The translations under genes and the position numbers were made by a program. This document shows positions 1 to 34,859 of a DNA stretch of 64,000 bases, piece by piece (the first letter of the stretch is position 1; each line of letters begins with the position of its first letter). Source of the stretch: an uncultured Acidobacteriota bacterium (GTDB lineage: Bacteria > Acidobacteriota > Terriglobia > Acidiferrales > UBA7541); contig CAWDRJ010000013.1 of assembly GCA_963804625.1 (NCBI GenBank), positions 10,065 to 74,064 of the forward strand, written 5' to 3'. The notes below the pieces were generated by a model. The model had not been told where the DNA came from and searched no databases. It saw nothing but the letters and a program-made list of their open reading frames with translations.

Positions 1-539
1 TGTCCGCCATCGCGCACCTTCACCCGCAATGCATCCATGTACAGGATCGGGTACACCTCATCCAGTACCCGGTTCTGCCACGTCTTGACTTCCTCCATCA
101 CCCCTTCGGTGACGTTGGAGATTAACGTCGGCGAAACCTCCACCCCGTAGATTTCCTGCAGGTGCCCTTCAATTTCTCGCGTAGTCATCCCTCGCGAGTA
201 CATCGAGATGATCTTGTCGTCAAAGCCGCTGAAGCGCGTTTGCCCTTTGCTCACAATGGCGGGCTCAAAGCTCCCGTTGCGATCCCGCGGTGTCTCCAGG
301 TCAATCTCGCCGAACTCGCCCTTCAGCTTCTTCGTAGTGCTCCCGTTTCTTGAGTTCCCACTATTGTGACCGACGGGATCATGCTTTTCGTAGCCCACAT
401 GCTCGGTCAGTTCCACTTTCAGTGCCCGTTCCAAAATCGCCTTGGTGATCTGCTTTAACAGTCCGTTCTCGCCGATAATGTCTTCCGGCTTCTTGTAGTC
501 GGCCAGAAGTTCATCAATCAGCTTCAGATTTATGGTCAT
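1..539 (-). CDS. IS256-family (Mutator-type) transposase, N-terminal ~179 codons, open at the left window edge
   Basis: Own translation of the minus strand from ATG 539-537 gives MTINLKLIDELLADYKKPEDIIGENGLLKQITKAILERALKVELTEHVGYEKHDPVGHNSGNSRNG...EIEGHLQEIYGVEVSPTLISNVTEGVMEEVKTWQNRVLDEVYPILYMDALRVKVRDGG. This is the conserved N-terminal half of IS256-type transposases. It is missing from the ORF track only because it has no stop inside the window. Confidence 0.85.
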   Translation of the reverse strand, partial: MTINLKLIDELLADYKKPEDIIGENGLLKQITKAILERALKVELTEHVGYEKHDPVGHNSGNSRNGSTTKKLKGEFGEIDLETPRDRNGSFEPAIVSKGQTRFSGFDDKIISMYSRGMTTREIEGHLQEIYGVEVSPTLISNVTEGVMEEVKTWQNRVLDEVYPILYMDALRVKVRDGG

Positions 540-610
540 CGGTTCTCCTTGTTCGACTCTGCCCCATGTGATGACCATTTACACAGTTTTCTTTACACCC
601 TCCTAAAACT
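1..610 (-). mobile_element. IS256-family element, right-hand portion (outer end approx 600-612)
   Basis: The transposase start is at 539. About 65 nt of non-coding end (..gaccatttacacagttttctttacaccctcc..) follows before the interrupted host ORF resumes. The exact terminus was not determined. Confidence 0.6.
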
Positions 611-1029: not shown

Positions 1030-1232
1030 ACGGTCCGTCGTCGGGGCTGGGCAGATTCTACGCTTCCAAGAGTCCCGAATGTTGTGAATTGAGCGTGGAA
1101 AGTTCTGGTTCCAACTTAGGTCTTAGGAAGTCTGGTTCTACTATCCAGAAACGCCACAAACGACTCTAGCATATCGATCGTTCAATTTTGTGCTTGACCT
1201 CCAGACGCAAAGGTGGAGGTAACTCCTGTGTA

Positions 1233-1294
1233 GTCGCGTTACCGGAGATGTGAAGTAGCGCTTTATTTGTCTGATTGGGGCGTTAATCAGGACC
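1233..1294 (+). repeat. Repeat unit U1 (core GTCGCGTTACCGGA plus distal GATTGGGGCGTTAATCAGG)
   Basis: GTCGCGTTACCGGA is at 1233-1246. The hairpin GGTAAC(1218-1223)/GTTACC(1238-1243) overlaps it, and the distal motif CGTTAATCAGG is at 1281-1291. The unit lies 23 bp beyond the stop of minus-strand ORF 1317-2390. Confidence 0.7.
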
Positions 1295-1316
1295 TAGGAT
1301 AGGTCTGAGCTTCGGC

Positions 1317-2390
1317 TCATGCTGGTTGGCGCACCTCGGAGATCGTGATCCAATTGGAGACGCCGTCGCTCACGAACGTCCTCGATCCATGCTTGCCAAC
1401 GTGGACAGGAGCCGTATCCCCGTCGATCGTTTCGCCCGGAGCCGGGCGAACTTTCAACATGGATCCCCCAACTACTTCCGCGACGACCACCTCCTGACCA
1501 CCGGAATAAAGACCTACTGCGGTGGCCCCGATCTTGAATCCACCGGGAACGTCGGCAATCGGTGTAAGTTCTTGCGTAAACCCAGGATGAGTGCCATCGC
1601 ATCGAACCAGAACGTTCGGCGTGCTGATAGTCTGGCTCGCGGTTGCGGGCGGTGCCGGGGGACGAGGGATCACGAGGCGTTGAATTCGACCCTGCGGTCC
1701 GAAACTATAGCTGCCGCCGGCAGTAATGCTCGTCTGCACCGCTGCTACTTGAGCCGAGCTGCTGAGAGCACCAAAAAGTACCGAGGCGCCGTTCGCGCTC
1801 GATATCACGTTCTGACCGGTCTGGTTCTGACCCAACAGGTTGAGTGTCAGCATGCTCGTCGGACCGGTATGTCGGATCAGCGGGGTAGGATTCGGAACGT
1901 CTGTGGTCGGCATCCCGAAGAGGGAATTCTGTAAGAAGAACAGGGCTGACTGGCTTCCGAGATCGAACATGGGAACATCGAATTGGTTCACAAGCTGCGG
2001 GTTGCCACAATCGTCTCTCATCCCGATGTGTACGTGGTCGCGAGTGCCGAAATCCGAGATTGGCGCAGGATCGGGACTCTTTGCCAGGTTCACGATCGTG
2101 AGTTGGCCGCCGATCATGCGAAGGTCTGTAAACACGGCGCCGCTCAGGATGTGCACAGTGGTGCGGGGAACGGTCTGCCGCGGCCCAAATCCGGCCCACA
2201 TCACATCCTTCATTGGCCAAACGCCTGCGGGGATCTCGCAAAACGCCGGGGCCGGAAGAAGTGAGTCGTCGAACTCGAGGATCTTGCGCCCCTCCACGCA
2301 CGACATGGCTTTGATAAGCAACTGCCAATCAGTGAAAACGTTCCCTTCCGATGGCCCCCCGGGTCGGAACACGAAGAGATTTCCGTTCAT
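1317..2390 (-). CDS. Hypothetical protein, 357 aa, no recognisable domain
   Basis: A long ORF with a GGAGGG Shine-Dalgarno just upstream of ATG 2390. It has no signal peptide and includes a Gly/Ser/Thr/Gln-rich central region. It is bounded by repeat units U1 and U1b. Confidence 0.6.
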   Translation of the reverse strand: MNGNLFVFRPGGPSEGNVFTDWQLLIKAMSCVEGRKILEFDDSLLPAPAFCEIPAGVWPMKDVMWAGFGPRQTVPRTTVHILSGAVFTDLRMIGGQLTIVNLAKSPDPAPISDFGTRDHVHIGMRDDCGNPQLVNQFDVPMFDLGSQSALFFLQNSLFGMPTTDVPNPTPLIRHTGPTSMLTLNLLGQNQTGQNVISSANGASVLFGALSSSAQVAAVQTSITAGGSYSFGPQGRIQRLVIPRPPAPPATASQTISTPNVLVRCDGTHPGFTQELTPIADVPGGFKIGATAVGLYSGGQEVVVAEVVGGSMLKVRPAPGETIDGDTAPVHVGKHGSRTFVSDGVSNWITISEVRQPA

Positions 2391-2508
2391 CGCGCCCTCC
2401 TTGGCGTTGCGGAACGCGGTTTCGCCGGGCCGTTGCGCGATAGGGTCGAAGCTCTCCTTTAAGAAAGGTGTTTCTCGGTGAGCGACCGCCCTATCCGTCT
2501 TTAACCTA

Positions 2509-2538
2509 GCGCTTACCGTTCCGGAATGGTGAGATTAG
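2509..2538 (+). repeat. Repeat unit U1b (degenerate, U5-like)
   Basis: GCGCTTACCGttCCGGAatgGTGAGATTAG resembles U5 (TCGCCTTACCGGA...GTGTGATTAGGC). Confidence 0.45.
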
Positions 2539-2761
2539 TTTGCCTACGTCGGATTCTCCCGTACTCCTCGGTTTCGACTGGCGAGTACGCGGAATAGTCT
2601 GGTTAATAGTGCGCAATTGCGGCACATCGTTGCATCATTCTTAGAAATTGAAACCGTGGAGTGAAAGGAGTCCAAGCGGGCCTCGGAAAAAATCCCCCCA
2701 AAAGAATCGGACAATCGAAAACGAGCTTTTGCAGATGAGCCGGGTGATTGTGCGCTAAGTC

Positions 2762-2782
2762 CCGGTAAGTCGCGTTACCGGA
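2762..2782 (+). repeat. Repeat unit U2, 5' half (perfect hairpin CCGGTAA-gtcgcg-TTACCGG followed by A)
   Basis: The 7-bp stem spans 2762-2768/2775-2781. The group II intron starts 1 nt after it. Confidence 0.75.
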
Positions 2783-3011
2783 GTGCGACCTGTAAAGCTG
2801 CTGAATATGATTGTCTGGGGAGGAGGAAATCGATCAGACCGTGCGTCCCATCGCACGTAGCCTACAAAGCAGAGCGGGGAGGCAACGAACCGTTCTGGAG
2901 CCCTTGGACAATGTACCCATGCTCGTAAGAGCAGCGCCGAAACCGCGAGGCCACGGTGTATCTGCCAGCATTAGGTGGAGACGGGCCTAGGCTTGATCGT
3001 AGGGTCAGAAT

Positions 3012-4514
3012 CACTGCTGTCCAAATTAGCTGAGAACTCGGCTCGGACATATCCAGAATAAGGGCAAAAGTCGTCACCGGAGCCTTAGACGTGGGGCAGG
3101 TTGGCGGGCCCGAAGGGTTGCTCCTGTTCTGATGCTGTCTAAATTCTCCCCCCCTAAAATCTCGCAGTTACGCGTTTTTTTCGATGTAGATGATCGCTGC
3201 TGTCCAACCGATTGGCCCACTTAGGCCAATTGCAACGCCAACTGTTGTGGCGAGGTGGGTGGCATCGGCGGCGGTTGAAAGGGATCATCGATCCAAGTCC
3301 ACAGGTCACGGTAAACAAATAACTGCTGCCGTAGGAGTGCCACCAGATTCGAAAGGGACCAACCGAATGTCGACCGTAGTTGCAGATATTTCACCAGCAG
3401 CATGGCGATCAGCGCCGTCCAAAGCTGCGTCTTCAAGGCGTTAGCCGAAGTCCCTACAAACGTTTTCACCCGCAGCGACTGTTTTAAGGCCCGGAAAAAC
3501 AACTCTATTTGCCAGCGTTCCTGGTACACCGAGGCGATGGTAGCCGCCGCCAGTTCCAAGTGATTGGTCAGAAATACCAGCACGCGATCGCGCTCCTTAT
3601 CGTAAAACTCGATCCGCCGGAAGTAGGCATCCCTGCCCGCCTGGGCCAGCTTGTAGAAAAAGACCACTTCATCCCGTAGCACGCTGCGCCGCTGTGGAAC
3701 TTCACGCTTCTCCACCACTCCGTAGTCGGCGTTTTCCTTCAAGCGGGTCACAAAATAGACCGCTTGCTTGGTTAAGTTCGCAAACCATTCGTAATCCGTA
3801 TAGCCGCGGTCAAACACTAAAATCGCCCCCGGCGCAAACTGCATCTGCCGCGCCACGCGTACCTCATGCTTTTTGCCTTCCGTGATCACCGCGAAGGACG
3901 GCAAATAGCCATCGTGGTCCAGCAACAGGTGCAGCTTCACCGCACCTTTCGTCAGGCGAAACTTGGCCCAATCAAACATCGTGGCGCAGAGATCGATCAC
4001 CGTGGCATCCAAGCTCAGCAGCGGGTTCTTGAAACGGAATTTCCTCTTCTTCCTGGTTCCTGCTTGGCTGGCCGCCAGGATCTGGCACTTCGCCAGCAGT
4101 TGTTCAAATACCGTGCGCTGCAACTGCCAAGGCCGATGTTCGTTGGCATAAGCCAAGGTGGAGCGAGCCGGAGCGGTGGGCAAACCCAGATGGCGAAGTT
4201 TTCCTTCACTGGCGGCCAAGCCCCCACAGATTTCACGCAAGGACTTGGCGTGGCCCAGCTGACAAAAGAGCATAGCGATGAACTGGCCCCAACTACTGAA
4301 ACCGCGGGCATGCCACTCGGCCTGGTGCTGGCGCACGGCCGATTCAAATTCTAAACGAGGAATCAACTGCAGAATTTGTGAGAAAATACTGCTGACTCGA
4401 GTCAAGGCTGAGCCTCCTTAGCGTTGTGATTGGCTTTTGCAGAGCCCAACCTCAAGCTATCAGATGCTCGGCCTTTCTTACTTCACAAAACCAAATCCTA
4501 ATTTGGACAAGCGT
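3012..4514 (-). mobile_element. IS4-family insertion sequence (1503 bp) with 10-bp target duplication
   Basis: The terminal inverted repeats are CACTGCTGTCCAAATTAG (3012-) and the reverse complement of CTAATTTGGACAAGCGT (-4514). The direct repeat GGGTCAGAAT occurs at 3002-3011 and 4515-4524. Confidence 0.85.
3221..4405 (-). CDS. IS4-family DDE transposase (394 aa)
   Basis: The N-terminus is DUF4372-like (MTRVSSIFSQILQLIPRLEFESAV). DDE_Tnp_1 style blocks are present: LSLDATVIDL, ILVFDRGYTDYEWF, YQERWQIELFFRALKQ. Confidence 0.9.
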   Translation of the reverse strand: MTRVSSIFSQILQLIPRLEFESAVRQHQAEWHARGFSSWGQFIAMLFCQLGHAKSLREICGGLAASEGKLRHLGLPTAPARSTLAYANEHRPWQLQRTVFEQLLAKCQILAASQAGTRKKRKFRFKNPLLSLDATVIDLCATMFDWAKFRLTKGAVKLHLLLDHDGYLPSFAVITEGKKHEVRVARQMQFAPGAILVFDRGYTDYEWFANLTKQAVYFVTRLKENADYGVVEKREVPQRRSVLRDEVVFFYKLAQAGRDAYFRRIEFYDKERDRVLVFLTNHLELAAATIASVYQERWQIELFFRALKQSLRVKTFVGTSANALKTQLWTALIAMLLVKYLQLRSTFGWSLSNLVALLRQQLFVYRDLWTWIDDPFQPPPMPPTSPQQLALQLA

Positions 4515-5135
4515 GGGTCAGAATATACAAATGCTCCTAAGCGTCGTCACGCGAAGAGAGCCTAAAATGCTGCGCGGCTCTTCTTGCAGTGGGCACAGAG
4601 GCTTCCGGTTCCTCTGTCATGGGTAATCAACACTGCCGGCGTATAGAGCAGACCTAACCGATCGCGTCATTTCAGCGGAACAGGGTAAGCCCGGATCGCT
4701 CCCCGCAAGGGGAAGGACCATCGCAAGATGGCTCCAATGGCGATGCGGGCAACGGAGATGGGAGCAAGCGAAGGCTGCCCTGTAATCGGGCAGATAGAGG
4801 TTGCGTCGCCTCGTGGGGACAAGATCACCTCGCCGGAAACGGAGCTGACTTCCTGTTGGTGCTCAACTCGAGAACTCTTGAGGAACCGATGTATGAAGCA
4901 AAGCAAATGACGACGGCGCAAGCCGTTGGTGCAGCTTCACACACGACCGGTGGATTCTCCGCCGCTGTGCGAATCGGCAGCAAGTCAGTATCGAGTAGGT
5001 CTTGCTTCGTTTTGAATCAGGCCGCGTCCTCGTTTTTCAGGGGGGCGTTTTTGGGTGCTCGAGCCGGATGAGGGGAAACCTTCACGTCCGGTTCTTAGAG
5101 GGCTGGGCGTCAGCAATGGCGCCCGGCTACTCGAC

Positions 5136-5177
5136 AACTTGAAAAACCACTTGGACGATTAGCGTTGATCCGGCATG
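5136..5177 (+). repeat. Repeat unit U2, 3' half
   Basis: AACTTGAAAAACCACTTGGACGATTAGCGTTGATCCGGCATG aligns with U4 (AACTGAGAATTCCACTTCTCCGGTAACCGCGTTTATCAGGCATG) and with U3. Confidence 0.75.
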
Positions 5178-5225
5178 TCTCATGGCAATTGCGATCCACT
5201 GTGCGCCGTTGTATCGTTCTGAGCG

Positions 5226-5495
5226 GTGGATCTTCCCGAGCAATGGGCATTGATCGAAGCTGACCTTGAGCGGGCGCGGAGCACTCTGCCTCAAGAGGCT
5301 GCGACCAGCGAACCCGTTCGCTACTATCAAGCGTTTCTCAACCACAATGAACTTGAATTGGCGTGCGACATGCTCGAAGCGTATGCCGAGGATCATCAGG
5401 TCAGTAAAGAATTTTGGATCGCCCTTAGCGATGCCGCTACGAAAATGAACTTGCCGAGCGCAACACGATACACGAAATTTGCCGAAAGTACTTAG
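5226..5495 (+). CDS. Small orphan protein, MafI-like immunity protein (89 aa, GTG start)
   Basis: Its size and the motif ..YYQAFLNHNELELACDMLEAYAEDHQVSKEFWIALSDAATKMNL.. resemble MafI-family immunity proteins as I remember them. No toxin gene is adjacent. Confidence 0.45.
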   Translation: MDLPEQWALIEADLERARSTLPQEAATSEPVRYYQAFLNHNELELACDMLEAYAEDHQVSKEFWIALSDAATKMNLPSATRYTKFAEST

Positions 5496-5521
5496 CTTGG
5501 CCCCTGGTTTGATTGCTAGTG

Positions 5522-5594
5522 CCTGGTTTGTCGCCTAACCGGAAAAGTCAAATTGCCTGAAATCCACTTGGACGGTTACCGCGTTTATCGGGAG
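5522..5594 (+). repeat. Repeat unit U3
   Basis: The sequence is CCTGGTTTGTCGCCTAACCGGAAAAGTCAAATTGCCTGAAATCCACTTGGACGGTTACCGCGTTTATCGGGAG. The hairpin arms are CCtGGTT/AACCGG. The unit starts 27 bp after the stop of ORF 5226-5495. Confidence 0.75.
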
Positions 5595-5699
5595 CGAGTG
5601 GCTTTCGACTTCTCTAATCTTGGACCTCTTTCGCTCCGTCGAGTCTGCTTGGCTCGTTAGTTGTCACTACGGAACGTATGCAAGGGGTATACTGAGCGC

Positions 5700-6107
5700 A
5701 TGTCGCAAAGTGATTTAGTTGTTGTTCAATCGTACGGCACTGAAGGCGAGGCCGAGGTTGCGAAGGGCATCCTCGAATCTTCAGGCATCGATGCGATGAT
5801 TCAGGCGGATACGGCTGGTCGCATGCGAGAGCATCTGGCATGGAGCGGCCTGGGACATCGGGTGCTCGTGCGCGAAGAAGATGCCGCCGCGGCGCGAAGC
5901 CTTCTTGCCTTGCCCCAAAACGATGATCTCGTGCTACTTCAGAATGCAACGGAGATCCAAGTGGAAGATCTGCAAGGTGCGCTTTTGTCCGCAGGCATTT
6001 TCGCAACAGTCCGGTATGACGGCACTTATTATCAGATCCTCGTGAATGAAGAAGATGCAGCGGACGCTCGCAAGGTGCTTGATGCGCTCCCAGAAGCGCG
6101 ACCATAG
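5700..6107 (+). CDS. DUF2007-like (putative signal-transducing) protein, two tandem repeats
   Basis: From ATG 5700 the protein reads MSQSDLVVVQSYGTEGEAEVAKGILESSGIDAMIQ... and carries a second copy, ..LQGALLSAGIFATVRYDG..EEDAADARKVL. This pattern is typical of DUF2007. Confidence 0.6.
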   Translation: MSQSDLVVVQSYGTEGEAEVAKGILESSGIDAMIQADTAGRMREHLAWSGLGHRVLVREEDAAAARSLLALPQNDDLVLLQNATEIQVEDLQGALLSAGIFATVRYDGTYYQILVNEEDAADARKVLDALPEARP

Positions 6108-6165
6108 CGACAAACCAGTGGCCTGATTCCCAGCTCCCGATAAGCCCTGACTGCGTCTTCGACGC

Positions 6166-6223
6166 GTCGCTAGTGCCAGAAACTTGTCCAGAGTCTTCCT
6201 CTTTGCCAAAGTGATCCTGGGAT
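6166..6223 (+). repeat. Repeat unit U3b
   Basis: The sequence is GTCGCTAGTGCCAGAAACTTGTCCAGAGTCTTCCTCTTTGCCAAAGTGATCCTGGGAT. AGAAACTTG matches the joined U2 (GGAAACTTG), and GTGATCCTGGGAT matches GTTGATCCGGCAT. Confidence 0.6.
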
Positions 6224-7416
6224 TCGATTCGGCAAGCTAAGGCCGATATACGACATGGCGCTTCGTGCCCGACGGTTAGCATGGCTCCGGTACTGGCGAT
6301 CACTTGTTTGGTGGCAAGGACTGAATGTGCACAGTCCTTTGACCCCGTTGGAGAGTTTCTTAAACCGGTCGTCACCGGGCCGAACCGAATCCCTATTTCC
6401 ATCAAGGAGTACAGGGATGAGGACGGACACAAAGCTGTGGCGAAGTCGAAAGGCGAAGCAAGAACTGGCGCGGCGGTTGCAGTCTGAGAACCCAGGACTG
6501 GAGGTGGTCCAGCCACACGCCGCGGGAATCGATGTGGGCAATAGTGCGCACTACGCGGCCGTGAGACCGGATCGTGATTCGCAACCGGTACGCCGATTCG
6601 AGTGCTTCACCGCGGATCTGTATCGCTTAGCCGACTGGTTGCAGAACTGTGGTGTGCAGACCGTGGCTTTGCAGTCGACGGGGGTGTATTGGATTCCCTT
6701 GTACGACATTTTGGAAGAACGTGGGTTCCAGGTCTATCTGGTTAACGCCCGGCACACCAAGAATCTGCCGGGACGCAAGAGCGATGTGCAGGAAAGCCAG
6801 TGGCTATTGAAATTGCATACCTACGGGTTGTTGAATAATTCGTTCCAACCACCCTCGAAGATTCGGATCCTACGCACCTACTGGCGGCAGCGGTTACAAC
6901 ACGTCACGGGAGCAGCCACCTGTGTGCAACGCATGCAGAAAGCGCTGACGCAGATGAACATACAGTTAGCGAATGTGATCAGCGACCTGAGCGGGGTGAC
7001 TGGACAGCTGATTGTGCGGGCCATCGTCGCTGGTGAACGTGACCCGTGGAAGCTCGCCGAACTCAGTCACCCGCGGATTCAAGCCAGCCGCGAGGAGATT
7101 GCCAAAAGCCTAGAAGGCAACTGGCGCCAGGAGTTGATCTTTGTGCTGCAACAAGAAATCCAGATGTATGACACCTACCAGCGACGAGTTGCGGAATGCG
7201 ACCAGGAATTGCAGAAGCACCTGAGCGCTTTTGCCGATACTGTCTCGCCGCCAGGGAAGGAAGAACCACCCCCGAAAAAGAAGAAGAAACAAAACAAGAA
7301 TAATCCTCACTTCCATCTCGCTGCTGAACTGCAGCGCATCAGCGGAGTGGATCTGACGCGCATCGACGGCGTCGATGTGATGGTCGCGCAAACGCTCGTA
7401 AGTGAAGTGGGACTAG

Positions 7417-8687
7417 CAGCTTGTTGAAGAATTTGGTTTTCGAGGTTTTTCGTTCTGAGTTTTGAGTTATCGCTGAGTTGTGAAGGAGTGGTTTGGGTTG
7501 TTCTATCTACCGAGCCAGCGTATCGAAGCTCGCGTTTCATGTTCTGGCCATCAGGTTTCGCAATCGGCACAGATTGTAGGCAGCTCCGGTGAAGGTGAAC
7601 AGCCACCCCACCTTGTCGATCCCTCTCAACTTCACTTTCCTTAGCATCCCGACCATCTTCATCCACCCGAACAATTGCTCCACTCGTTTTCGCTTCCGCT
7701 GACTCACCTCATACCCCGCATGCCGCGTGGTCCGCTCGTCCACCGCGCTCCTGCGATTGCGTATTGTTCTGCGCCACATGCGGCGTGATGTTCATCCCGC
7801 GAAGTTCGCCTACGAATTCCTGCGTGTCGTAGTTCTTGTCCCCTCCCAACGTCACTCGCTTTCCCGGCGGGATCGCTTCGGCCATCAGCAGCGCCGCATC
7901 CCGCTCCGCTCTTCCATTCGCCTCGGTCAGAAACGTCTGCACCAAAAGCCCGTTGCGGTTCTCCATCAATACATGTCCCAGGTAGCTCAGCTTCGCCTCG
8001 CTCCCTTGGGACTTCCTGAACAGACGGGCATCGGGATCCGTCGTCGATTCATGGGTCTGGTTCTTTCTCTTTTCCCCGTGAAAGTCGACCTCTCCTCCCG
8101 CTCCAGGCGGCTTCCCCTTCCCGTCCTTCCGCCGGAAACTCTTCTGGCTGGCCCAGGCCTCGATCAGCGTTCCGTCCACCGTGAAATGTTCATCCGACAT
8201 AAACGGCCTGGCTCGTTCCAGCACCCGCCTGAAAAACGACTCCGCGATCTCTTCGTTCAGCAAGCGCTCCCGATTCTTGCTGTACACCGCGTGATTCCAC
8301 ACCGCCTCGTCCATCTCCATCCCCACAAACCACCGGAACAGCAGGTTGTACTGCAGTTGCTCGATCAGCATTCGTTCGCTGCGCACCGAATAGAAGATCT
8401 GCAACAGCAGAGACCGAAACAGCCGCTCCGGCGCAATCGATGGCCGCCCCACCTCCGAGTACAACTTCGCAAACTGCGGCGACATCTCCTTCAGAATCTC
8501 ATCCACCATCTTGCGGATCGGCCGCAACGGATGATCGGCCGGGACTCGCTTCTCGGGAGAAACGTAGCTGAACATTCCTTCTTGCTGGTTATCGTCTCCG
8601 CGCATTCACTCGTCTCCTTGGACTTCCTTCCTTCAGACGAGTTTTTTGAATTAAAGTTGCAGCGGAACTGCATTTTTCAACAAACTG
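7417..8687 (-). mobile_element. IS5-group element copy A (1271 bp), CTAG target duplication
   Basis: The ends are CAGCTTGTTGAAGAAT.. and ..ATTTTTCAACAAACTG. CTAG is present at 7413-7416 and 8688-8691. Confidence 0.85.
7537..8605 (-). pseudogene. IS5-family transposase, frameshifted (copy A)
   Basis: ORFs 7709-8605 and 7537-7779 together match the intact 355-aa copy D. The frame breaks after ..ITPHVAQNNT. Confidence 0.85.
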
Positions 8688-9116
8688 CTAGACATGAGTC
8701 GATGGAAAACCGAGGCACACTTTGCTTCCTGGTTGGGGCTCTGCCCAGACAATCGCATCAGCGGAGACAAAGTGCTCAGTCGAGGTACTCGCCATGTGCT
8801 CAACCGTGCGGCCACGGCACTTCGTCTGGGGGCCTCGACCCTACTGAAAAGCCAAACCTACCTCGGGGCGCAGTACCGCCGCTTGCGTAGCAGGCTCGGC
8901 GCCCCAAAAGCCATCACCGCCATGGCTCATCGCCTCGCTCGACTGGTCTATCGAATGTTGAAGTATGGTCAGCAGTACGTCGACAAAGGTGCAGAGTATT
9001 ACGAACGAAGGAACCGCCAACAACAAATCGAGTTCCTCAGAAAGAAGGCCGCCCAACTCGGCCTAAAGGTCACACCAGCCCATGCGTGAACCTCTCAATC
9101 AAGAAGTTTCTGGAGA

Positions 9117-9172
9117 GTCGTAATCGGAAACTGAGAATTCCACTTCTCCGGTAACCGCGTTTATCAGGCATG
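9117..9172 (+). repeat. Repeat unit U4
   Basis: The sequence is GTCGTAATCGGAAACTGAGAATTCCACTTCTCCGGTAACCGCGTTTATCAGGCATG. It starts 28 bp after the stop of IS110 gene no.1. Confidence 0.75.
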
Positions 9173-9241
9173 TGGGGCTAAAGTGATCGGCAACTCTCCG
9201 CCAACTCGTTTGTACCGTGAAGATGGTCAAGGCCTGATTTA

Positions 9242-9280
9242 TCGCCTTACCGGACATGTTCGGTAAGCGTGTGATTAGGC
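9242..9280 (+). repeat. Repeat unit U5
   Basis: The sequence is TCGCCTTACCGGACATGTTCGGTAAGCGTGTGATTAGGC, with the hairpin CTTACCG(9246-9252)/CGGTAAG(9261-9267). Confidence 0.65.
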
Positions 9281-9327
9281 ACGGTCACGTGCGCTGAACG
9301 CCTTTTCGAACTTCGCCGCGCTATAAT

Positions 9328-10197
9328 TTGCAATGGGAATCCCCTGATCTAGACTGCGGAGGCTCTAACTTGCGTCTTTTCTTGTCATTTTTGTTTTTCC
9401 TGGCCGCGGCTGCTGCGAGCGCGTTTGGCCAAAATGCCGCTTCGGATTCGATTGCACTTCCCTTGTGGGAATCCTCCAGGGTTACGTCGCTCGAGATGCT
9501 GGCTCCCGCCAAAGATCCGTCGTCGGAGCAGTCCGGAACATCGCCAACCGCCAGCAATCCGAAGCAAGTATCGCCGGAGACTAAGCCGCAGAGCGCCGTT
9601 CCCGCAGGACAGCAACCAAAGCGAATTATGGGCATCATGCCCAATTTTCGAGCGGTCAGTGCCGGCACAATCCCGCCGCCCCCGACCGCCAAGCAAGCTT
9701 TCATAATCGCTACGAAGAACAGCTTTGACTACTCATCGTTCATTTTTGTGGGGATGACCTCGGCCCTCGCTGAGTGGACGAACGCCCACCCGCAGCTGGG
9801 CCAGGGCATGGCAGGCTACGGCCAATATTACTGGCGAGGGTTTGTGGACAAAACGGACGGCAACTATCTCGTGATTTTTGCCTTCCCCACAATGCTGCAT
9901 CAGGACGAGCGTTATTACGCAATGGGCACGGGCGGTTTTTGGAAGCGAGCTTTTTACGCAGCCTCTCGTGTTGCCGTCGCTAAAAACTATGAAGGAAAGA
10001 ATGTCTTCAATGCGTCGGAGGTGATCGGTAGGGGCACCGCGCAAGCGATTTCACTATCGTATTACCCCAGCCAGACTCGGACGGCTAGTGGGTTCGCCTC
10101 AAAGTACGCATACGCGATTGGCCGCGATGCGCTCACGAATGTATTCCGCGAATTCTGGCCGGATATCGCCATACATGTATTGCATCGCCACCCGTAG
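9328..10197 (+). CDS. Hypothetical secreted protein (start uncertain; TTG 9328 or TTG 9370)
   Basis: The ORF has a signal-peptide-like LRLFLSFLFFLAAAAASAFGQ, a Pro/Ser-rich linker and then an aromatic-rich domain. I recognise no family. Confidence 0.55.
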   Translation: MQWESPDLDCGGSNLRLFLSFLFFLAAAAASAFGQNAASDSIALPLWESSRVTSLEMLAPAKDPSSEQSGTSPTASNPKQVSPETKPQSAVPAGQQPKRIMGIMPNFRAVSAGTIPPPPTAKQAFIIATKNSFDYSSFIFVGMTSALAEWTNAHPQLGQGMAGYGQYYWRGFVDKTDGNYLVIFAFPTMLHQDERYYAMGTGGFWKRAFYAASRVAVAKNYEGKNVFNASEVIGRGTAQAISLSYYPSQTRTASGFASKYAYAIGRDALTNVFREFWPDIAIHVLHRHP

Positions 10198-10263
10198 TCC
10201 ACCCCGGGGAAGCAACCTCGCAGGCGTGTATCCCTGTCTGCGGAAATACTTCTCGCTCTCTAG

Positions 10264-11571
10264 CAGGCTGCTGAAAAATTGAGTTGGGGCGGCAATTTCT
10301 TTCTGCCGTTGCGTTATTTGTGAGTTGCGACTGGCCCTTTGTTCGGTTTTCGGTGCCGCCGAATGCCCGAAGTGGCGTTTTCAGCACCGTGCAAAGACAC
10401 TACGGCCCGGACTTACTGCGCCCCAACCGCGACGGCCATCAGGTTTCGCATGCGCACCAAATTGTAGGCCGCGCACGCGAACGTAAACGTCCAGTCCACC
10501 TTCAAGGTTCCGCGATGACGCACCTTACGCAACAGAGCAATGGTCTTCAGCCAGCCGAAGCATTCTTCGATACGCTTCCTCTTCTTCTGGCTGATGTGGT
10601 AGCCCTCGTGTTGTGTCGTTCGTCCATCAACGGCGCTGCCGCCTCGCCGCGCCAGATTTTGCGCCACGTGTGGCGTCACGCGCATGTTCCGGCACTCGCG
10701 TACAAACTCCGCGGTATCGAAACCCTTGTCGCCACCCACTGTCACACGCTTTCTTCCTGGAACATCCTGCAACATGGTCATCGCCGCATCGCGTTCGGCC
10801 GTGCCTGTCGCTTCCCACACCAGGCTCGAAATGATCAATCCGTTGCGATTCTCCACCAGCAGATTCCCGCTGTAGCTCAACTTGGCCTCCTTGCCTGGGC
10901 CCTTGCGCGCCAACTGGGCTTCTGGATCACTGTTTGATTCGTGCGTCCGGTTCGAGCGCTTCTCCCCATGAAAATCCACCGTGGGATTTCCCGGATCCTC
11001 CGGCGGAGACGAATTCGTTTTGTCCCTCCGCTGAAAACTCTTCAAGCTGGCCCAGGCTTCCAGCAGCGTGCCGTCCACGCTGAAGTGCTCGTCCGACATC
11101 CACCCCTGCTCTCGCGCGTGTGCCACCACCCGCCCCAGAAATTCCTTCGCTACCTCGGCCTCCAGCAAGCGGTCCCGATTCTTGGTGAACACCGTCGCGT
11201 CCCACACCGGATCGTCCAAATTCAACCCTACAAACCAGCGGAACAATATGTTGTAGTCCATCTCTTCCATCAGCAGTCGCTCGCTGCGCACCGAATAGAA
11301 CATCTGCAACAACTGCGCGCGCAAGAGTTGCTCGGGCGGAATCGACGGGCGACCCACTTTCGCGTACATCTTGCTGAACTGCGGCGAGAGCTGCTTCAGG
11401 ATCTCGTCCACCATCGTGCGGATCGGTCGCAGCGGATGGTCCTTGCGTACCCGCTGCTCCGGAGAAATGTAGCTGAACACGTGATTTTGTTGCTGATCGG
11501 TTCCTCGCATGCGACATTGGACGCATCAAGAGCTGCTCCGTTGCAAAATTTCCGAGTTTTTCAGCAGCCTG
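10264..11571 (-). mobile_element. IS5-group element copy B (1308 bp, divergent from A/C/D), CTAG target duplication
   Basis: The ends are CAGGCTGCTGAAAAATTGAG.. and ..GAGTTTTTCAGCAGCCTG. CTAG is present at 10260-10263 and 11572-11575. Confidence 0.85.
10413..11510 (-). CDS. IS5-family transposase, intact (365 aa)
   Basis: The protein reads MRGTDQQQNHVFSYISPEQRVRKDHPLRPIRTMVDEILKQL.. and is collinear with copies A, C and D but clearly diverged. Confidence 0.9.
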   Translation of the reverse strand: MRGTDQQQNHVFSYISPEQRVRKDHPLRPIRTMVDEILKQLSPQFSKMYAKVGRPSIPPEQLLRAQLLQMFYSVRSERLLMEEMDYNILFRWFVGLNLDDPVWDATVFTKNRDRLLEAEVAKEFLGRVVAHAREQGWMSDEHFSVDGTLLEAWASLKSFQRRDKTNSSPPEDPGNPTVDFHGEKRSNRTHESNSDPEAQLARKGPGKEAKLSYSGNLLVENRNGLIISSLVWEATGTAERDAAMTMLQDVPGRKRVTVGGDKGFDTAEFVRECRNMRVTPHVAQNLARRGGSAVDGRTTQHEGYHISQKKRKRIEECFGWLKTIALLRKVRHRGTLKVDWTFTFACAAYNLVRMRNLMAVAVGAQ

Positions 11572-11963
11572 CTAGTACGCTACTGAAATTCCCCCGACAG
11601 GCGAAATACCTGTCACCTCGTGAGAAGTTCTATAAAAGTTGTCAAGAAAAAAATGTTCTCCCTTGGCCGGGGCTCTTCTTGCCTTCCAGCCCGCTGCATT
11701 GAACAGGATTGTTCTTGCCTTCCGTTCCGTGAGCTCGGGACGCTCCAAACAATTGCGTAGCGCTTTTGGTTTTCTCTACCAGTGGTTTTCATCGCCTCTT
11801 CACGACGAAGCCCGTCCGTTCTGAGACCAACAAAGCAGCAGCACGGTGGTCAGGTGGCAACCATGGTTCTATTGGGGACTCGTGGCCCATAGCTTTTTCG
11901 GGTTGTCCGAGGGGGACTAGGGTCGCGTGGGAGACTTCGCCGCCCGAGGCAGGCAAAGCCTAA

Positions 11964-13155
11964 CTAGCAGCTTGTTGAAGAATTTAGTTTTCGAAGTTTT
12001 TTCGTTCTCAGTTTTGAGTTTTCGCTGAGTTGTAAGGGAGTGGTTTGGGTTTTTCTATCTACCGAGCCGGCTCGTCGAAGCCACGGGTCAGTTCTGGCCA
12101 TCAGGTTTCGCAATCGGCACAAGTTGTAGGCGGCTCCGGTGAAGGTAAACAGCCACCCCACCTTGTCGATTCCTCGCAGCTTCACTTTCTTTAGCATCCC
12201 CACCATCTTCATCCACCCGAACGATTGCTCCACTCGTTTTCTCTTCCGCTGACTCACCTCATACCCCGCATGCCGTGTGGTCCGCTCGTCCATCGCGCTC
12301 CTGCGATTGGTGTTGTTCTGCGCCACATGCGGGGTGATGTTCATCCCGCGCAGTTCTCGTACGAATTCCCGCGTGTCGTAATTCTTGTCTCCTCCCAACG
12401 TCACGCGCTTTCCCGGCGGGATGGCTTCGGCCATCAGCAGCGCCGCATCTCGCTCCGCTCTTCCGTTCGCCTCGGTCAGAAAGGTCTGCGACCAAAAGCC
12501 CATTGCGGTTCTCCATCATTACATGTCCCATGTAGCTCAGCTTCGCCTCGCTGCCTCCGGACTTCTTGCACAGCCGGGCATCGGGATCCGTGGTCGATTC
12601 ATGGGTCTGGTTCTTTCTCTTTTCCCCGTGGAAGTCGACGTCTCCTCCCGGTCCCGCGGGCTTCCCACTCCCGTCCTTGCGCCGGAAACTCTTCTGACTG
12701 GCCCAGGCCTCGATCAGCGTTCCGTCCACCGTGAAATGTTCATCCGACATGAACGGCCTCGCTCGTTCCAGCACCCGCTCGAAAAATGACTCCGCGATCT
12801 CTTCGTTCAGCAAGCGCTCCCGATTCTTGCTGTACACCGCGTGATTCCAGACCGCCTCGTCCATCTCCATCCCCACAAACCACCGGAACAGCAGGTTGTA
12901 CTGCAGTTGCTCGATCAGCATTCGTTCGCTGCGCACCGAATAGAAGATCTGCAACAGCAGGGACCGAAACAGCCGTTCGGGCGCAATCGATGGTCGCCCC
13001 ACTTCGGAGTACAACTTCGCAAACTGCGGCGACATCTCCTTCAGAATCTCATCCACCATCTTGCGGATCGGCCGCAACGGATGATCGGCTGGTACGCGCT
13101 TCTCGGGAGAAACGTAGCTGAACATTCCTTCTTGCTGGTTATCGTCTCCGCGCAT
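11964..13155 (-). pseudogene. IS5-family transposase, frameshifted, native stop lost (copy C)
   Basis: ORFs 12259-13155 and 11964-12503 break after ..MENRNGLL. The native stop after ..NLMART is lost through a 1-nt deletion relative to copy D, so the frame reads on to the TAG in the flank. Confidence 0.85.
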
Positions 13156-13237
13156 TCACTCGTCTCCTTGACCTTCCTTACTTCAGACGAGTTTCTTGAA
13201 TTAAAGTTGCAGAAGAAAGGGGTTTTTCAACAAACTG
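11968..13237 (-). mobile_element. IS5-group element copy C (1270 bp), left member of a head-to-tail dimer
   Basis: It has the same ends as copy A. The left flank is CTAG (11964-11967). The right flank CTAA (13238-13241) is shared with copy D. Confidence 0.85.
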
Positions 13238-13241
13238 CTAA

Positions 13242-14511
13242 CAGCTTGTTGAAGAATTTAGTTTTCGAAGTTTTTTCGTTCTCAGTTTTGAGTTTTCGCT
13301 GAGTTGTAAGGGAGTGGTTTGAGTTTTTCTATCTACCGAGCCGGCTCGTCGAAGCCACGGGTCACGTTCTGGCCATCAGGTTTCGCAATCGGCACAAGTT
13401 GTAGGCGGCTCCGGTGAAGATAAACAGCCACCCCACCTTGTCGATTCCTCTCAACTTCACCTTCTTTAGCATCCCCACCATCTTCATCCACCCGAACGAT
13501 TGCTCCACTCGTTTTCTCTTCCGCTGACTCACCTCGTACCCCGCATGCCGTGTGGTCCGCTCGTCGATCGCGCTCCTCCGATTGGTGGTGTTCTGTGCCA
13601 CATGCGGGGTGATGTTCATCCCGCGCAGTTCTCGCACGAATTCTCGGGTGTCGTAATTCTTGTCTCCTCCCAACGTCACGCGCTTTCCCGGCGGGAGGGC
13701 CTCGGCCATCAGCAGCGCCGCATCTCGCTCCGCTCTTCCGTTCGCCTCGGTCAGAAAGGTCTCGACCAAAAGCCCATTGCGGTTCTCCATCATTACATGT
13801 CCCATGTAGCTCAGCTTCGCCGCGCTGCCTCCAGACTTCGTCCACAACCGGGCATCGGGATCCGTGGTCGATGCATGGGTCTGGTTCTTTCTCTTTTCCC
13901 CTTGGAAGTTGACGTCTCCTCCCGGTCCCGCGGGCTTCCCACTCCCATCCTTGGGTCGGAAACTCTTCTGACTGGCCCAGGCCTCAATCAGCGTTCCGTC
14001 CACCGTGAAATGTTCATCCGACAGGAACGGCCTCGCTCGTTCCAGCACCCGCGCGAAAAATGACGCCGCGACCTGTTCATTCAACAAGCGCTCCCGATTC
14101 TTGCTGTACACCGCGTGATTCCACACCGCCTCGTCCATCTCCATCCCCACGAACCACCGGAACAGCAGGTTGTACTGCAGTTGCTCGATCAGCATTCGTT
14201 CGCTGCGCACCGAATAGAAGATCTGCAACAGCAGGGACCGAAACAGCCGTTCGGGTGCAATCGATGGTCGCCCCACTTCGGAGTACAGCTTCGCAAACTG
14301 CGGAGACATTTCTTTCAGAATCTCATCCACCATCTTGCGGATCGGCCGCAACGGATGATCGGCTGGTACGCGCTTCTCGGGAGAAACGTAGCTGAACATT
14401 CCTTCTTGCTGGTTATCGTCTCCGCGCATTCACTCGCCTCCTTGACCTTCCTTACTTCAGACGAGTTTCTTGATTTAAAGTTGCAGAAGAAAGGGGTTTT
14501 TCAACAAACTG
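13242..14511 (-). mobile_element. IS5-group element copy D (1270 bp), right member of the dimer
   Basis: It has the same ends as copy A and is flanked by CTAA at 13238-13241 and 14512-14515. Confidence 0.85.
13362..14429 (-). CDS. IS5-family transposase, intact (355 aa)
   Basis: An uninterrupted ORF. It serves as the reference for frameshifted copies A and C. Confidence 0.9.
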   Translation of the reverse strand: MRGDDNQQEGMFSYVSPEKRVPADHPLRPIRKMVDEILKEMSPQFAKLYSEVGRPSIAPERLFRSLLLQIFYSVRSERMLIEQLQYNLLFRWFVGMEMDEAVWNHAVYSKNRERLLNEQVAASFFARVLERARPFLSDEHFTVDGTLIEAWASQKSFRPKDGSGKPAGPGGDVNFQGEKRKNQTHASTTDPDARLWTKSGGSAAKLSYMGHVMMENRNGLLVETFLTEANGRAERDAALLMAEALPPGKRVTLGGDKNYDTREFVRELRGMNITPHVAQNTTNRRSAIDERTTRHAGYEVSQRKRKRVEQSFGWMKMVGMLKKVKLRGIDKVGWLFIFTGAAYNLCRLRNLMART

Positions 14512-14609
14512 CTAATCAGCTGAGACTCGCCCTCGAACCCGAATGTCTCCCGAACCCAGCGGACCACCACCAGGAGGAATCCCAGGGATGGAACGGATTC
14601 CAGAGACAC

Positions 14610-15677
14610 TCAAGCTGTTTGTGGTTTCAGATGTTTGGCGTCGAAGTGCGCTCCTTTCTTCCAGAGGATCAACGTGATGGCGGCCATCTTGCGCGCCAAG
14701 GTCAGGCGCGCCATTTCCGGCCGAATCCCTTGGGCCACCAGTGCCTCATAAAACTCCTGGAACGGTCCGGGCTTGGCCGCGGCCACCGTGGCGGCACTCT
14801 TGAACAGGTTCTTCAGATCGTGATGGTGATTGCGATTCAGCCCACGAATCGAGACCGGCTTCTTCGCGCGCTTCAGTTCTCCCTGGATGCAGCGGTGCTC
14901 GGCGCTGCCGTGTGTCTCGATTCCAAACCCGCTGTAGGTCCAGAGCTGCCGCTTCGTACGAAACCGGTGCGGGGTCTGGATCAAAGCGATCAGCAGGGCC
15001 GCCCGGATCGGACCGATGAACGGAATCTCACGTAATAATTTCCGCGCGTCGTGCTTCCTGGCCTCGGCCAGCAGCTCGCGCCGTACTTCCTGACGCAACA
15101 TCCTTAATGCATCGAACTGCTGGTAGTAGAACTCCGCTCGGCGGTGCACCCCGGCTTCTCGAATCTTGGCGAGCCACTCCGAGCGATACCGCGGTGCGTA
15201 GACCTGCTTCCCCGCGCAGGGAATCCCCCAACTGCGGTAGATCGCCTTCAAGCGACTCATCACTCGTCCCAGATCTTTGCTGATCGCCAGGTAACTGCGC
15301 GCCAGCTCCTTCAGTGTCCGTACTCCGTGCTCCCCGTGATAGACCGAGCGGACCAGGTTCGCGCGCAACAACTCGGCTAGCTTGCGCGCATCGATGCGAT
15401 CACTCTTGCTCCCTTCTTTGAGCAGAGCATTCCGGCGGGGATTACATACCACCAGTTCGGTTACGTGCGGCTTGATGAGGTCATACAACCAGGCCGCCCA
15501 GGTGCCTTCTTCAAAAGTGACACGCAGGCTTCCGCGCAATCCCTTGAGGAAATCCAGAATGGTGCTGGCTTTCGTTTCGATCGTTGATTCCATCACCAGC
15601 TTGCCAGCAGAATTTAGAACTGCGAGGGAGATCGCTTCCTTGTGAACATCCATCCCGATATACTTCACGCTATCCAT
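14610..15677 (-). CDS. IS110-family recombinase no.2
   Basis: From ATG 15677, preceded by GGAG, the protein reads MDSVKYIGMDVHKEAISLAVL.. The C-terminal half carries ..IPFIGPIRAALLIALIQTPHRF... Confidence 0.9.
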   Translation of the reverse strand: MDSVKYIGMDVHKEAISLAVLNSAGKLVMESTIETKASTILDFLKGLRGSLRVTFEEGTWAAWLYDLIKPHVTELVVCNPRRNALLKEGSKSDRIDARKLAELLRANLVRSVYHGEHGVRTLKELARSYLAISKDLGRVMSRLKAIYRSWGIPCAGKQVYAPRYRSEWLAKIREAGVHRRAEFYYQQFDALRMLRQEVRRELLAEARKHDARKLLREIPFIGPIRAALLIALIQTPHRFRTKRQLWTYSGFGIETHGSAEHRCIQGELKRAKKPVSIRGLNRNHHHDLKNLFKSAATVAAAKPGPFQEFYEALVAQGIRPEMARLTLARKMAAITLILWKKGAHFDAKHLKPQTA

Positions 15678-15755
15678 TAGAGGGCGCTCCTTTGTGGTGA
15701 GGTTTGAGCCGAACACTCCAAACCCTACTCCATAAGGGGCGCCCTTTTATATCGC

Positions 15756-15769
15756 GTCGCGTTACCGGA
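15756..15769 (+). repeat. Repeat unit U6 (core only)
   Basis: GTCGCGTTACCGGA is identical to the U1 and U2 core. It lies 16 bp beyond the stop of minus-strand ORF 15785-16003 and directly abuts the 5' flank of IS110 no.2. Confidence 0.6.
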
Positions 15770-16016
15770 CATTGAGGGCCACGCTCACCAGAGCCATCTT
15801 TTGACAGCCGGCATTTCCATAGCTGGTTTACTGTAGTCCGGTGTGTAGGCGATGCATTCAATTTGAACATCCTCCCACCTCGACTGACAGCGAAACTCAC
15901 CAAGGTTTCGCGAGTCGTTCGGGTAACGAATAAGAAGCGTCCTCGCGTCTTTCCATTCAAGCTCTAGCAGCCGTGGGCCGTGTCCAACTGTGAAGACAGT
16001 CATCGAATGCCCTCGT

Positions 16017-29626: not shown

Positions 29627-29691
29627 TGCGTCGCGGACTTGATTGGGCATCCCGCTCTCTCGCGAGAGGGAGTTTGAACTAGTAATTATGG

Positions 29692-31623: not shown

Positions 31624-32024
31624 TCGAAGTTTTGATCGGAGAGATGTTTGGGTCGGACTGAATCCGCCCGACAGATTACGAACGAGCCGTGGTCGTCGAT
31701 GCAGAGCGTCAAAGAAAACAGAACAAGACCACTCTTCGGAGTGAGTGGAGAAGTCTGCTCAGAAAAAGCTCAAAACGAGCTTGACAGAGTCAGCATTGTT
31801 AGAGATGTCCGGTTAGCGCTGCCAGCTCAACCGGTCGATGCAACACCATCCAGCGCATTGATTCGACAATGCTTCCGCGGGAGAACTATCTGTTTGGCTG
31901 CACTCGGTCAAAACCTAGCCAGAGCAGCGTTCCGGCCGGTCTAGCCCTAGCGGGCGACTTTAGCATTTGTTTTCAATGCGAGGTCGATGCGAGCTTGGTG
32001 TTGCGTCGACCCATTGAGACCACC

Positions 32025-32037
32025 GCGTTAATCAGGG
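32025..32037 (+). repeat. Repeat-unit distal motif (U7), GCGTTAATCAGGG
   Basis: ACCGCGTTAATCAGG matches ACCGCGTTTATCAGG of U4 at 14 of 15 positions. It lies 11 bp beyond the stop of IS110 gene no.4. Confidence 0.4.
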
Positions 32038-32047
32038 TCGAAAATCA

Positions 32048-34770: not shown

Positions 34771-34859
34771 CGAGAAGAGCTTGCCACAAAACGGGGGATG
34801 CTAAAGGTCGCGGGAGTTGGCGATCGTCGTTGCTAGGCGATCCTGGCGCGAAATTTCTC

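Follow-up and report, generated by a model that had tools for sequence, protein, structure and literature searches.

Why should one palindromic repeat stand, always on the same strand, between single orphan genes at one end of a bacterial contig? The question is raised by a stretch of 64,000 nucleotides of contig CAWDRJ010000013.1 from an uncultured Acidobacteriota bacterium (Acidiferrales; assembly GCA_963804625.1), which was analyzed at its full length and is called the window here. The initial annotation of this DNA had described a same-orientation repeat family bounding single orphan genes and had left it between a cassette-like and a repetitive extragenic palindrome (REP)-like system. The family is real and larger than was described, occurring in more than 100 Acidobacteriota (Terriglobia) loci. 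Its repeats, referred to as units, are possibly non-canonical attC-like recombination sites that define gene cassettes, with an enzyme not encoded beside the arrays; this is the reading developed below, and it is held at slightly less than even confidence. If it is right, the left 16 kb of the window would be where a cassette array ends, one of a type that is widespread among Acidobacteriota of the class Terriglobia.

Architecture of the Repeat Unit

The units share a 14-nt core, GTCGCSTWACCGGA, which occurs in the window as four exact copies and one copy with a single mismatch (starting at 1233, 2769, 5530, 9241, and 15756), all on the + strand; none of 100 shuffled sequences reached the observed number. 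A second box, GCGTTNATCNGG, is present in nearly all units and, as seen in a flank alignment, is approximately the reverse complement of the sequence 5' of the core. The unit is therefore a two-arm imperfect palindrome of 60–85 bp with this box as its right arm, and not the short hairpin plus tail first proposed, in which one claimed pairing partner lay across the core. The consensus of 132 extracted units reads (a)aCTCCTGrTwAG TCGC GTwACCGGAcA [10-35 nt] tGTcCGGTwAC sGC GTTwATCrGGActtg, and both arms are visible in an alignment of 111 units. An outer stem (CTCCTGATTA / TAATCAGGAG) leads into a short, mismatched center, where GTCGC faces sGCGT and the CGC/GCG pairs are flanked by mismatches, then into an inner stem (GTTACCGGACA / TGTCCGGTAAC) and a variable loop of 10–35 nt. 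One extra base on the 3' side is conserved in the unit alignment (column 78), and the 3' outer arm opens with GCGTT, whose invariance was demanded by the search pattern.

RNAalifold predicted only the invariant CGC/GCG pairs from the 111 units, and a hand-defined two-stem structure was tested for that reason. In this structure 71.3% of cells are paired, compared with 29–41% when the partners are slid; the outer and inner stems reach 59–85% against the same slid controls. When folded as single-stranded DNA, 70 of 108 units form one long hairpin (mean -12.9 kcal/mol, mean z -2.3). The window units folded singly have energies near background, with the exception of U5 (see below), which is the best single hairpin of the window (DNA fold -10.1 kcal/mol, z=-2.7). 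Rfam at gathering thresholds matched the group II introns of the window and nothing else, and at E<=1 it matched no unit in three dense arrays. Literature searches with the repeat sequence itself gave primer matches only, and no description of the unit family was found in the literature on Acidobacteriota repeats or on clusters of attC sites lacking integron-integrases (CALINs). A single 9-bp protein-binding motif repeated in all four half-arms was also considered, and dropped because the spacing of the outer half-sites differs from that of the inner ones.

Units of the Window

Arm profile hidden Markov models (HMMs; nhmmer) built from 113 related units recovered left arms at 1221-1249, 2757-2782, 5518-5545, 9229-9257, and 15756-15772, and right arms at 1268-1298, 5568-5596, 9145-9174, and 32022-32037. 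These resolve into six units, all on the + strand. Mobile elements interrupt three of them, a group II intron in one case and an IS110-family element in each of the other two. U1 (1221..1298; left arm E=3e-6, right arm E=3e-4) and U3 (5518..5596; E=4e-5 and 6e-5) are complete, and U5 (9229..9284), found by the arm HMM, is a short-loop form. U2 consists of a left arm at 2757..2782, also found by the arm HMM and folding locally as CCGGTAA/TTACCGG, and of a loop with a degenerate right arm, CCACTTGGACGATTAGCGTTGATCCGGC, at 5136..5177 on the + strand (E=0.67 with a small model; missed by the large one). U4 begins with the outer left arm GCTAGTGC at 6169..6176, flanked as in U3 (GCTAGTGCCTGG) and cut by the first IS110-family element, and resumes at 9110..9174 as CTGGAGAGTCGTAATCGGAAAC ... 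CCGGTAACCGCGTTTATCAGGC with a right arm at E=2e-6. Its two halves had been listed as separate units (U3b and U4), but they are parts of one unit split by the element at 6177-9109.

The sixth unit, U6, combines the outer left arm CACCTCGTGAGAAG (11614..11627, +), recognized by comparison with the related locus L040, with an inner left arm, short loop, and degenerate right arm at 15757..15797 (+), recognized by the core motif and the arm HMM. In L040, CTAACTCCTGATAAG is followed by TTCTATAAAAGG, the junction being CTCCTGATAAG against TTCTATAAAAGG; this junction and the full-length (~1.65 kb) IS110 relatives are the reason for joining the two parts. A degenerate unit split by an IS5 copy (copy B) had been proposed in this region; that copy in fact sits in ordinary spacer at CTAG, and the left part of U6 is the 11614-11627 segment. 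The arm models did not pick up a further proposed unit, U1b (2509-2538), at E<=1. The supposed outlier at 32025-32037 does hold unit sequence, although only as an isolated right arm, GAGACCACCGCGTTAATCAGGGTCG (32017..32039, +; E=0.07), which abuts a third IS110-family element. The left 16 kb thus holds six units and the remaining 48 kb one remnant, and no units are found right of the array, where the his, eut, and ABC-permease genes lie.

Distribution and Array Organization

Outside the window, one genome per species was scanned with a two-box pattern and the loci were cut as ~8-kb stretches. At least 119 stretches matched, of which ~34 are estimated to be chance matches, and among the matches listed ~85% of the stretches come from metagenome-assembled genomes (MAGs) of Acidobacteriota. 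The host MAGs are assigned to Ca. Acidoferrum/Acidiferrales, Terracidiphilus, Acidobacteriaceae, Ca. Sulfotelmatobacter, and 'gp2'. In ~0.95 Mb, the arm profiles found 212 left arms and 241 right arms. The 86 full-length (8 kb) Acidobacteriota loci carry a mean of 3.2 sites at a median spacing of 910 bp, a density conditional on the loci having been selected for containing a unit. One locus (L117) has ~11 sites in 8 kb, and neighboring 8-kb blocks reveal arrays of at least 24 kb. The arms lie on one strand within the locus in 73 of 75 loci (binomial p=1.5e-19). Replication strand as the cause of this co-orientation was set aside, since GC skew by unit strand is positive in 44 cases and negative in 37, a comparison whose power is limited in 8-kb windows.

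The sole viral-contig match (L133, 11629-13246; IMGVR_UViG_3300037364_000022) has three co-oriented units at its right end with single ORFs (open reading frames) between them, and these may mark a provirus-host junction or be phage-carried cassettes. A locus labeled Ca. Binatus (L042, 2780-4291) and one of an Acidobacteriota MAG (L014, 2829-4341) have units and 1.5 kb of sequence (94% identity) in common, which reflects either mis-binning or inter-phylum transfer.

Behavior of Modules Across Genomes

The cassette-like interpretation offered at the outset gains from the related loci, in which co-oriented arrays, loss of synteny at units, and shared modules ending in arms are all observed. Where a unit lay between two genes, the neighboring ORF was homologous across genomes in none of 151 cases, compared with 11 of 104 cases without a unit (Fisher p=4e-5; ORF calls are crude, being the longest ORFs). 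A 3434-nt module encoding a hexapeptide acetyltransferase and a pyrroloquinoline quinone (PQQ) dehydrogenase is 99% identical between two species-level MAGs (L029 and L020) with unrelated flanks, and the identity runs from the step between ...AG and TCGC in the left arm to that between ...GGTAAC and sGCGTT in the right arm. Another module, shared at 97% identity, is found 3 kb from the first in one of the genomes; in the other genome the distance is 480 kb and the array is on the opposite strand, and the module keeps its polarity relative to the units. Six more shared segments end in, or a few nt from, arms.

At one homologous site, a full unit is present in L013 and only the outer palindrome, CCCGATAAGT-TC-GTTAATCAGG, in L077. 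A second empty outer palindrome occurs in L105, which makes 2 of ~190 outer palindromes empty. The cargo includes GNAT, DinB, SnoaL, hexapeptide acetyltransferase, and receiver-domain proteins, together with many ORFs without a family. Ser/Thr kinase paralogs of ~800-1000 aa were also seen in the unit-bearing 8-kb loci in 25 cases (for example, L087 2156-5188, L004 3590-5950, and L011 2441-5323), the one in L087 having a left arm on one side and a right arm on the other, a hint that the arrays help the kinase family to expand.

Mobile Elements at the Units

The adjacency of IS110-family elements and a group II intron to the units, taken in the initial annotation as targeting, was confirmed and extends to other loci. 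In the window, an ORF-less group II intron (2783..5135, +; RF02012 at 2839-2986, RF00029 at 5059-5135) begins directly after ...TTACCGGA of U2. It is itself interrupted by an IS4-like element (~3012-4514, duplication of ~10 bp, transposase DUF4372 + DDE_Tnp_1), and an intact homolog of 843 nt (L097, 2169-3005) likewise follows ...AAACCGGA, so that ...ACCGGA precedes the intron in both loci. The first IS110-family element (6177..9109, +; DEDD_Tnp_IS110, E=1e-18; ends CAGAAACTT...AAGTTTCTG) sits in the outer stem of U4 and has an IS5/IS1182-like copy with a CTAG duplication nested in it (7417-8687). The second (11628..15756, -; DEDD_Tnp_IS110 and Transposase_20; ~1.65 kb when intact) lies between ...WAG and TCGCG of U6 and holds two tandem IS5-like copies (11968-13237 and 13242-14511). 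It has 84-87% identity to elements at the same unit position in L031, L032, L040, L048, and L056, and the same end or start sequence is found at this position in L081 and L087, for a total of seven other loci.

The third element (~32040-33560, -), beside the isolated right arm, shares its junction, GCGTTAATCAG against AGTCGAAAATCACT, with L101. Back to back with it is a further IS110-family element of another lineage (~33575-34800, +), whose type recurs directly after GCGTTAATC in L094 and L063. In these other genomes (L101, L094, and L063), both types occupy fixed positions of unit right arms. IS110-family genes are the sole recurring recombinase-type family, with 32 members from 23 sources, the window included. 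An IS91-like element with an upstream tyrosine recombinase ends between AG and TCGC in L021 and L088, and units of other loci are interrupted by IS30-like and IS5-like elements. In L021 (812-2869), a 291-aa tyrosine recombinase gene precedes a 393-aa IS91-family-looking transposase gene, with a relative in L088 (7264-8000); the element end (…GGCTTCGTTCAAG) abuts TCGCG of the unit at the same position as the second IS110-family element.

A simple k-mer search of two IS110-family elements for bridge-RNA guides matching the unit gave nothing interpretable, and targeting is claimed on account of the repeated identical junctions instead. The unit is used as a shared structure-plus-sequence target by at least four IS110-family lineages, the ORF-less group II intron, and IS91-like, IS30-like, and IS5-like elements. 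A shared target of this kind would be a safe landing site, and it is for this reason that three of the six window units are interrupted.

Cargo and Neighbors of the Window Array

Module 1 of the window is a 357-aa ORF (1317..2390, -) that runs opposite to the unit orientation; a second sample yielded an identical contig of 1627 nt that breaks off at the junction with the intron. Module 2 is an 89-aa ORF (5226..5495, +) for which the earlier label 'MafI-like' has no Pfam support, and module 3 is a DUF2007 protein (5700..6107, +; PF09413, E=2e-11), the only Pfam family among the window modules, whose arrangement recurs in a second sample. The 55-nt interval between U4 and U5 is empty. Module 4 (9328..10197, +) encodes a 289-aa putative secreted protein and has a homolog in L022 that is likewise flanked by units and has different neighbors. 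Modules 1, 2, and 4 match no Pfam family. Exact-protein look-ups for other module arrangements returned two short contigs with the same arrangement, and two ORFs had no match.

Copy B (10264..11571, -; DUF772 and DDE_Tnp_1; CTAG duplication) occupies the spacer after module 4. It is one of four IS5/IS1182-like copies in the window (CTAG/CTAA duplications), is only ~75% related to the other three (7417-8687, 11968-13237, and 13242-14511), and belongs to a region in which elements are nested at three levels within 16 kb. Judging from the translated sequence, the left edge of the window (1-600) holds part of an IS256-family transposase gene, which seems to truncate a 171-aa ORF (514-1029), and a putative IS21-like istA/istB pair (16113-18544) closes the array on the right. 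Farther to the right, the 3' flank of an IS110-family gene (28571-29626) holds a second group II intron, which encodes a reverse transcriptase (~29689-31623; RF02005 and RF00029) and is inserted ~20 nt after a GC-rich hairpin.

Comparison With Known Systems

The units resemble attC sites and CALINs in being imperfect palindromes with two stems, an unpaired center, an extra base on one arm, and a variable loop, and in having an invariant GTT at the 3' box. The resemblance extends to co-oriented sites ~0.5-1.5 kb apart, usually with one ORF between them, to accessory cargo (GNAT, DinB, SnoaL, and unknowns) in modules that are reshuffled between genomes, and to targeting by IS110-family elements and a group II intron. 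Unlike attC sites, however, the units do not fit the R''/R' consensus (AGT for AAC), have shorter spacers, and conserve sequence more than structure; their ORFs face either way and their break points lie on both arms. Acidobacteria carry chromosomal integrons with taxon-specific attC sites (PMC8352920), for which the published model reads GCCUAAC-AacuC-GUUgAAGC ... cGCUUAAc-UCGagC-GUUAGGC, with AAC and GUU essentially invariant (PMC8352920, Supplementary Data 1). The right arm of the unit, CCGGTAAC-sGC-GTTAATC, resembles the L'-spacer-R' half of this model, GCUUAAC-UCGAGC-GUUAGGC, and its R' is GTTwATC with an invariant GTT (GCGTT being demanded by the search pattern); the left arm reads TGATTAG-TCGC-GTTACCGG.

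REPs and their hairpin-forming doublets (REPINs) are also intergenic, high-copy palindromes that occur as singlets, inverted doublets, and clusters, are conserved in sequence, and are targets of IS110-family elements. The units differ from them in being strictly co-oriented locally, confined to arrays in variable regions, and associated with a synteny break at every unit; there is no REP-associated tyrosine transposase (RAYT) in the unit loci and no unit at three loci of the RAYT-like TIRYTs, and a REP is one short GC-rich hairpin as opposed to two nested stems. As with IS1111-attC elements, IS110-family elements occupy one fixed position and orientation in the repeat in independent genomes, but here the target is non-canonical and at least four IS110 lineages use four different unit positions. 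The intron directly after the stem-loop of the repeat recalls group IIC-attC introns, although it is ORF-less and the likeness concerns the insertion site. The pdif (Xer) modules of Acinetobacter plasmids are a further parallel, consisting of gene modules between short recombination sites with no dedicated recombinase gene nearby; pdif sites, however, are 28-bp XerC/XerD sites in alternating orientation, and the units are co-oriented and have no dif-like 11-6-11 organization.

Weighing the Attc-Like Reading Against Its Rivals

The case for a cassette system lies in the combination of regional arrays, co-orientation, ~0.9-kb spacing, loss of synteny, shared modules bounded by arms, accessory cargo, and the convergence of mobile elements. 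This combination is what a cassette system would produce and is not known behavior of REP, REPIN, or MITE (miniature inverted-repeat transposable element) families. The units are called non-canonical because the sequence boxes, the integrase, the ORF polarity, and the single crossover point of an integron all fail.

A number of observations weigh against reading the units as attC-like sites. Some concern the site itself: the R'' position reads GrTwAGT, with AGT where attC has an invariant AAC; the boxes of the attC model score ~-9 bits each on units compared with ~+20 for model-derived sequences; and the best ordered pair of boxes averages -21 bits, compared with ~+40 for model-drawn sequences and -31 for background. 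The attC-model check called for at the outset was run with ungapped conserved boxes of one published taxon model (Acidobacteria), not with the IntegronFinder covariance model, and the background score refutes a canonical attC but not a cassette-like system. Covariation is weak as well. With columns shuffled, 70.6% of cells still pair (71.3% unshuffled), which means that the palindrome is carried by conserved sequence, and the two W positions of each arm vary independently; compensatory changes of the 5' arm, as first described, are therefore replaced by a picture in which the 111 units pair mostly by conserved sequence.

Other difficulties concern the arrays. ORF orientation relative to the units is ~50/50 (upstream 71 same and 56 opposite, downstream 62 and 64), and half units are common, with 76 left-only and 105 right-only matches in the forms of a left arm followed by a module, a module followed by a right arm from the hairpin apex, or a left arm, cargo, and right arm. 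Some modules are large, ordinary-looking genes (a 713-aa PQQ dehydrogenase, 1000-aa kinases, and 1166-aa proteins). Break points fall on both arms, which would not be expected from a single crossover at R'; those of the two arms face each other at the boundary of outer stem and center, and of the features left unexplained this one is the most informative. Some shared-module boundaries could also stem from homologous recombination, given 80-bp repeats that are conserved.

The enzyme, finally, is not seen beside the arrays. Searches of all loci and the window by tblastn, phmmer, and HMM on ORFs and six-frame translations, with IntI1 and XerD (as search probes only) and the recombinases found in the loci as queries, gave no tyrosine recombinase in ~1 Mb around ~280 sites beyond three non-integron cases. 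One of these adjoins the IS91-like transposase gene of L021, that of L088 is its close homolog, and L049 is a chance-match locus outside Acidobacteriota. The array start in L113 has no recombinase upstream. Serine recombinases were rejected as the array enzyme, being present in four loci only and thus too rare.

Could the arrays nevertheless be bona fide ones, with the units as attC sites of sedentary chromosomal integrons and IntI outside every examined stretch? The arrays would match integrons in geometry, spacing, co-orientation, and cargo, and in attracting both IS110-family elements and a group II intron; the GTT at the start of the 3' outer arm and the existence of taxon-specific attC sites in Acidobacteria (PMC8352920) would fit as well. 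Nonetheless, the R''/L'' and L'/R' boxes of the Acidobacteria model score at background, R'' has no AAC, no Rfam model matches, ORF polarity is random, and break points occur in the left arm. Neither IntI in the ~1 Mb holding ~280 sites nor attI or a Pc platform in the examined loci was found, and the initial judgment that this is not a canonical integron and has no recombinase in view is upheld; ordinary integron arrays are accordingly regarded as improbable. The units might instead be the cargo-less miniatures (~80 bp) of a non-autonomous transposon or MITE, with the arms as terminal inverted repeats (TIRs) and the left arm-cargo-right arm segments as loaded forms, moved in trans into a palindromic target. 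Arms that are inverted repeats conserved mainly in sequence, the loaded forms in L029/L020 (3.4 kb), L114, L111 (6578-7130), and around the L087 kinase, the empty outer palindromes of L077 and L105, and the inner-element indel at a homologous site are what this explanation has in its favor. Yet transposons insert either way and the arrays are co-oriented 73:2, most genes lie between units (right arm, gene, left arm) and not within them, no target duplication was seen at the junctions read, the unit loci hold no recurrent transposase apart from IS elements with their own ends, and just 2 of ~190 outer palindromes are empty. Of the explanations considered, we give this one the least credence and think it very improbable.

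The REP-like half of the original two-way verdict is retained as the main rival, although it too is judged unlikely. Here the arm would be a singlet and the unit an inverted doublet of a selfish palindrome, spread on single-stranded DNA by a single-copy HUH transposase of RAYT/TIRYT type; copies would gather in accessory regions and the cassette look would be a by-product. Doublets with a variable spacer alongside 76 left-only and 105 right-only singlets mirror the organization of REPs into singlets, doublets, and clusters, and the little covariation, strong sequence conservation, and random ORF orientation are what selfish palindromes would show. IS110-family elements target REPs. The WAG before the inner palindrome recalls GTAG-tagged REPs, and Acidobacteria encode a distinct RAYT-like group, the TIRYTs, some with repeated TIR families (PMC3733652). 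However, searches with five Acidobacteria TIRYTs, a sixth from Koribacter, and E. coli YafM (PMC3733652) found no RAYT or TIRYT in ~0.95 Mb of Acidobacteriota unit loci, in keeping with the earlier remark that no RAYT was in view. The 10-kb loci around three distinct Terriglobia TIRYT genes (among L122-L132) contain no units, and the one whose flanks were read has a different palindrome, GGGTGCCCCAGGTCTC.... Furthermore, the 73:2 local co-orientation is unexpected and has no tie to GC skew (44:37), synteny across a unit is kept in 0 of 151 cases, near-identical modules of different species end in arms, and within the window the units keep to one end. In L122 (4700-5000), tandem palindromes GGGTGCCCCAGGTCTCGC...GAGACCTGGG precede the TIRYT gene and form a separate family unrelated to the units; a search-pattern match ~230 nt from a RAYT gene in a Pseudomonadales MAG (L050, 4436-5239) is probably coincidence.

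Proposed Mechanism and Implications

If the units are attC-like recombination sites, the unit would fold, probably as a single strand or an extruded cruciform, and would be cut and rejoined at the boundary of outer stem and center. We infer that such cutting and rejoining would let modules be excised, inserted, and reshuffled between arrays and species with their polarity kept, by an enzyme that would be encoded away from the arrays. A more far-reaching proposal is that Terriglobia hold a phylum-specific cassette system independent of integron integrases, in which an enzyme encoded elsewhere cuts ~80-bp two-stem sites, whose sequence has no relation to attC, at the outer-stem/center boundary, building arrays tens of kb long and exchanging single-gene modules between species. 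This proposal is considered rather doubtful; its enzyme might be an IS110-type RNA-guided recombinase or a host enzyme.

Acidobacteriota rank with the most abundant bacteria of soils, and the routes by which they acquire and reshuffle accessory genes are poorly understood. As a natural catalog of the programmed targets that several IS110-family (bridge-RNA) recombinases and a group II intron use, the units are helpful for studying target choice. Should they prove to be REPIN-like, strict local co-orientation and synteny breaks at the level of modules would be new properties for REPINs. If, on the other hand, the units are recombination sites, they would represent a large unrecognized pool of mobile cassettes that current integron tools would probably miss, and a second, independent example of hairpin-type sites organizing gene arrays.

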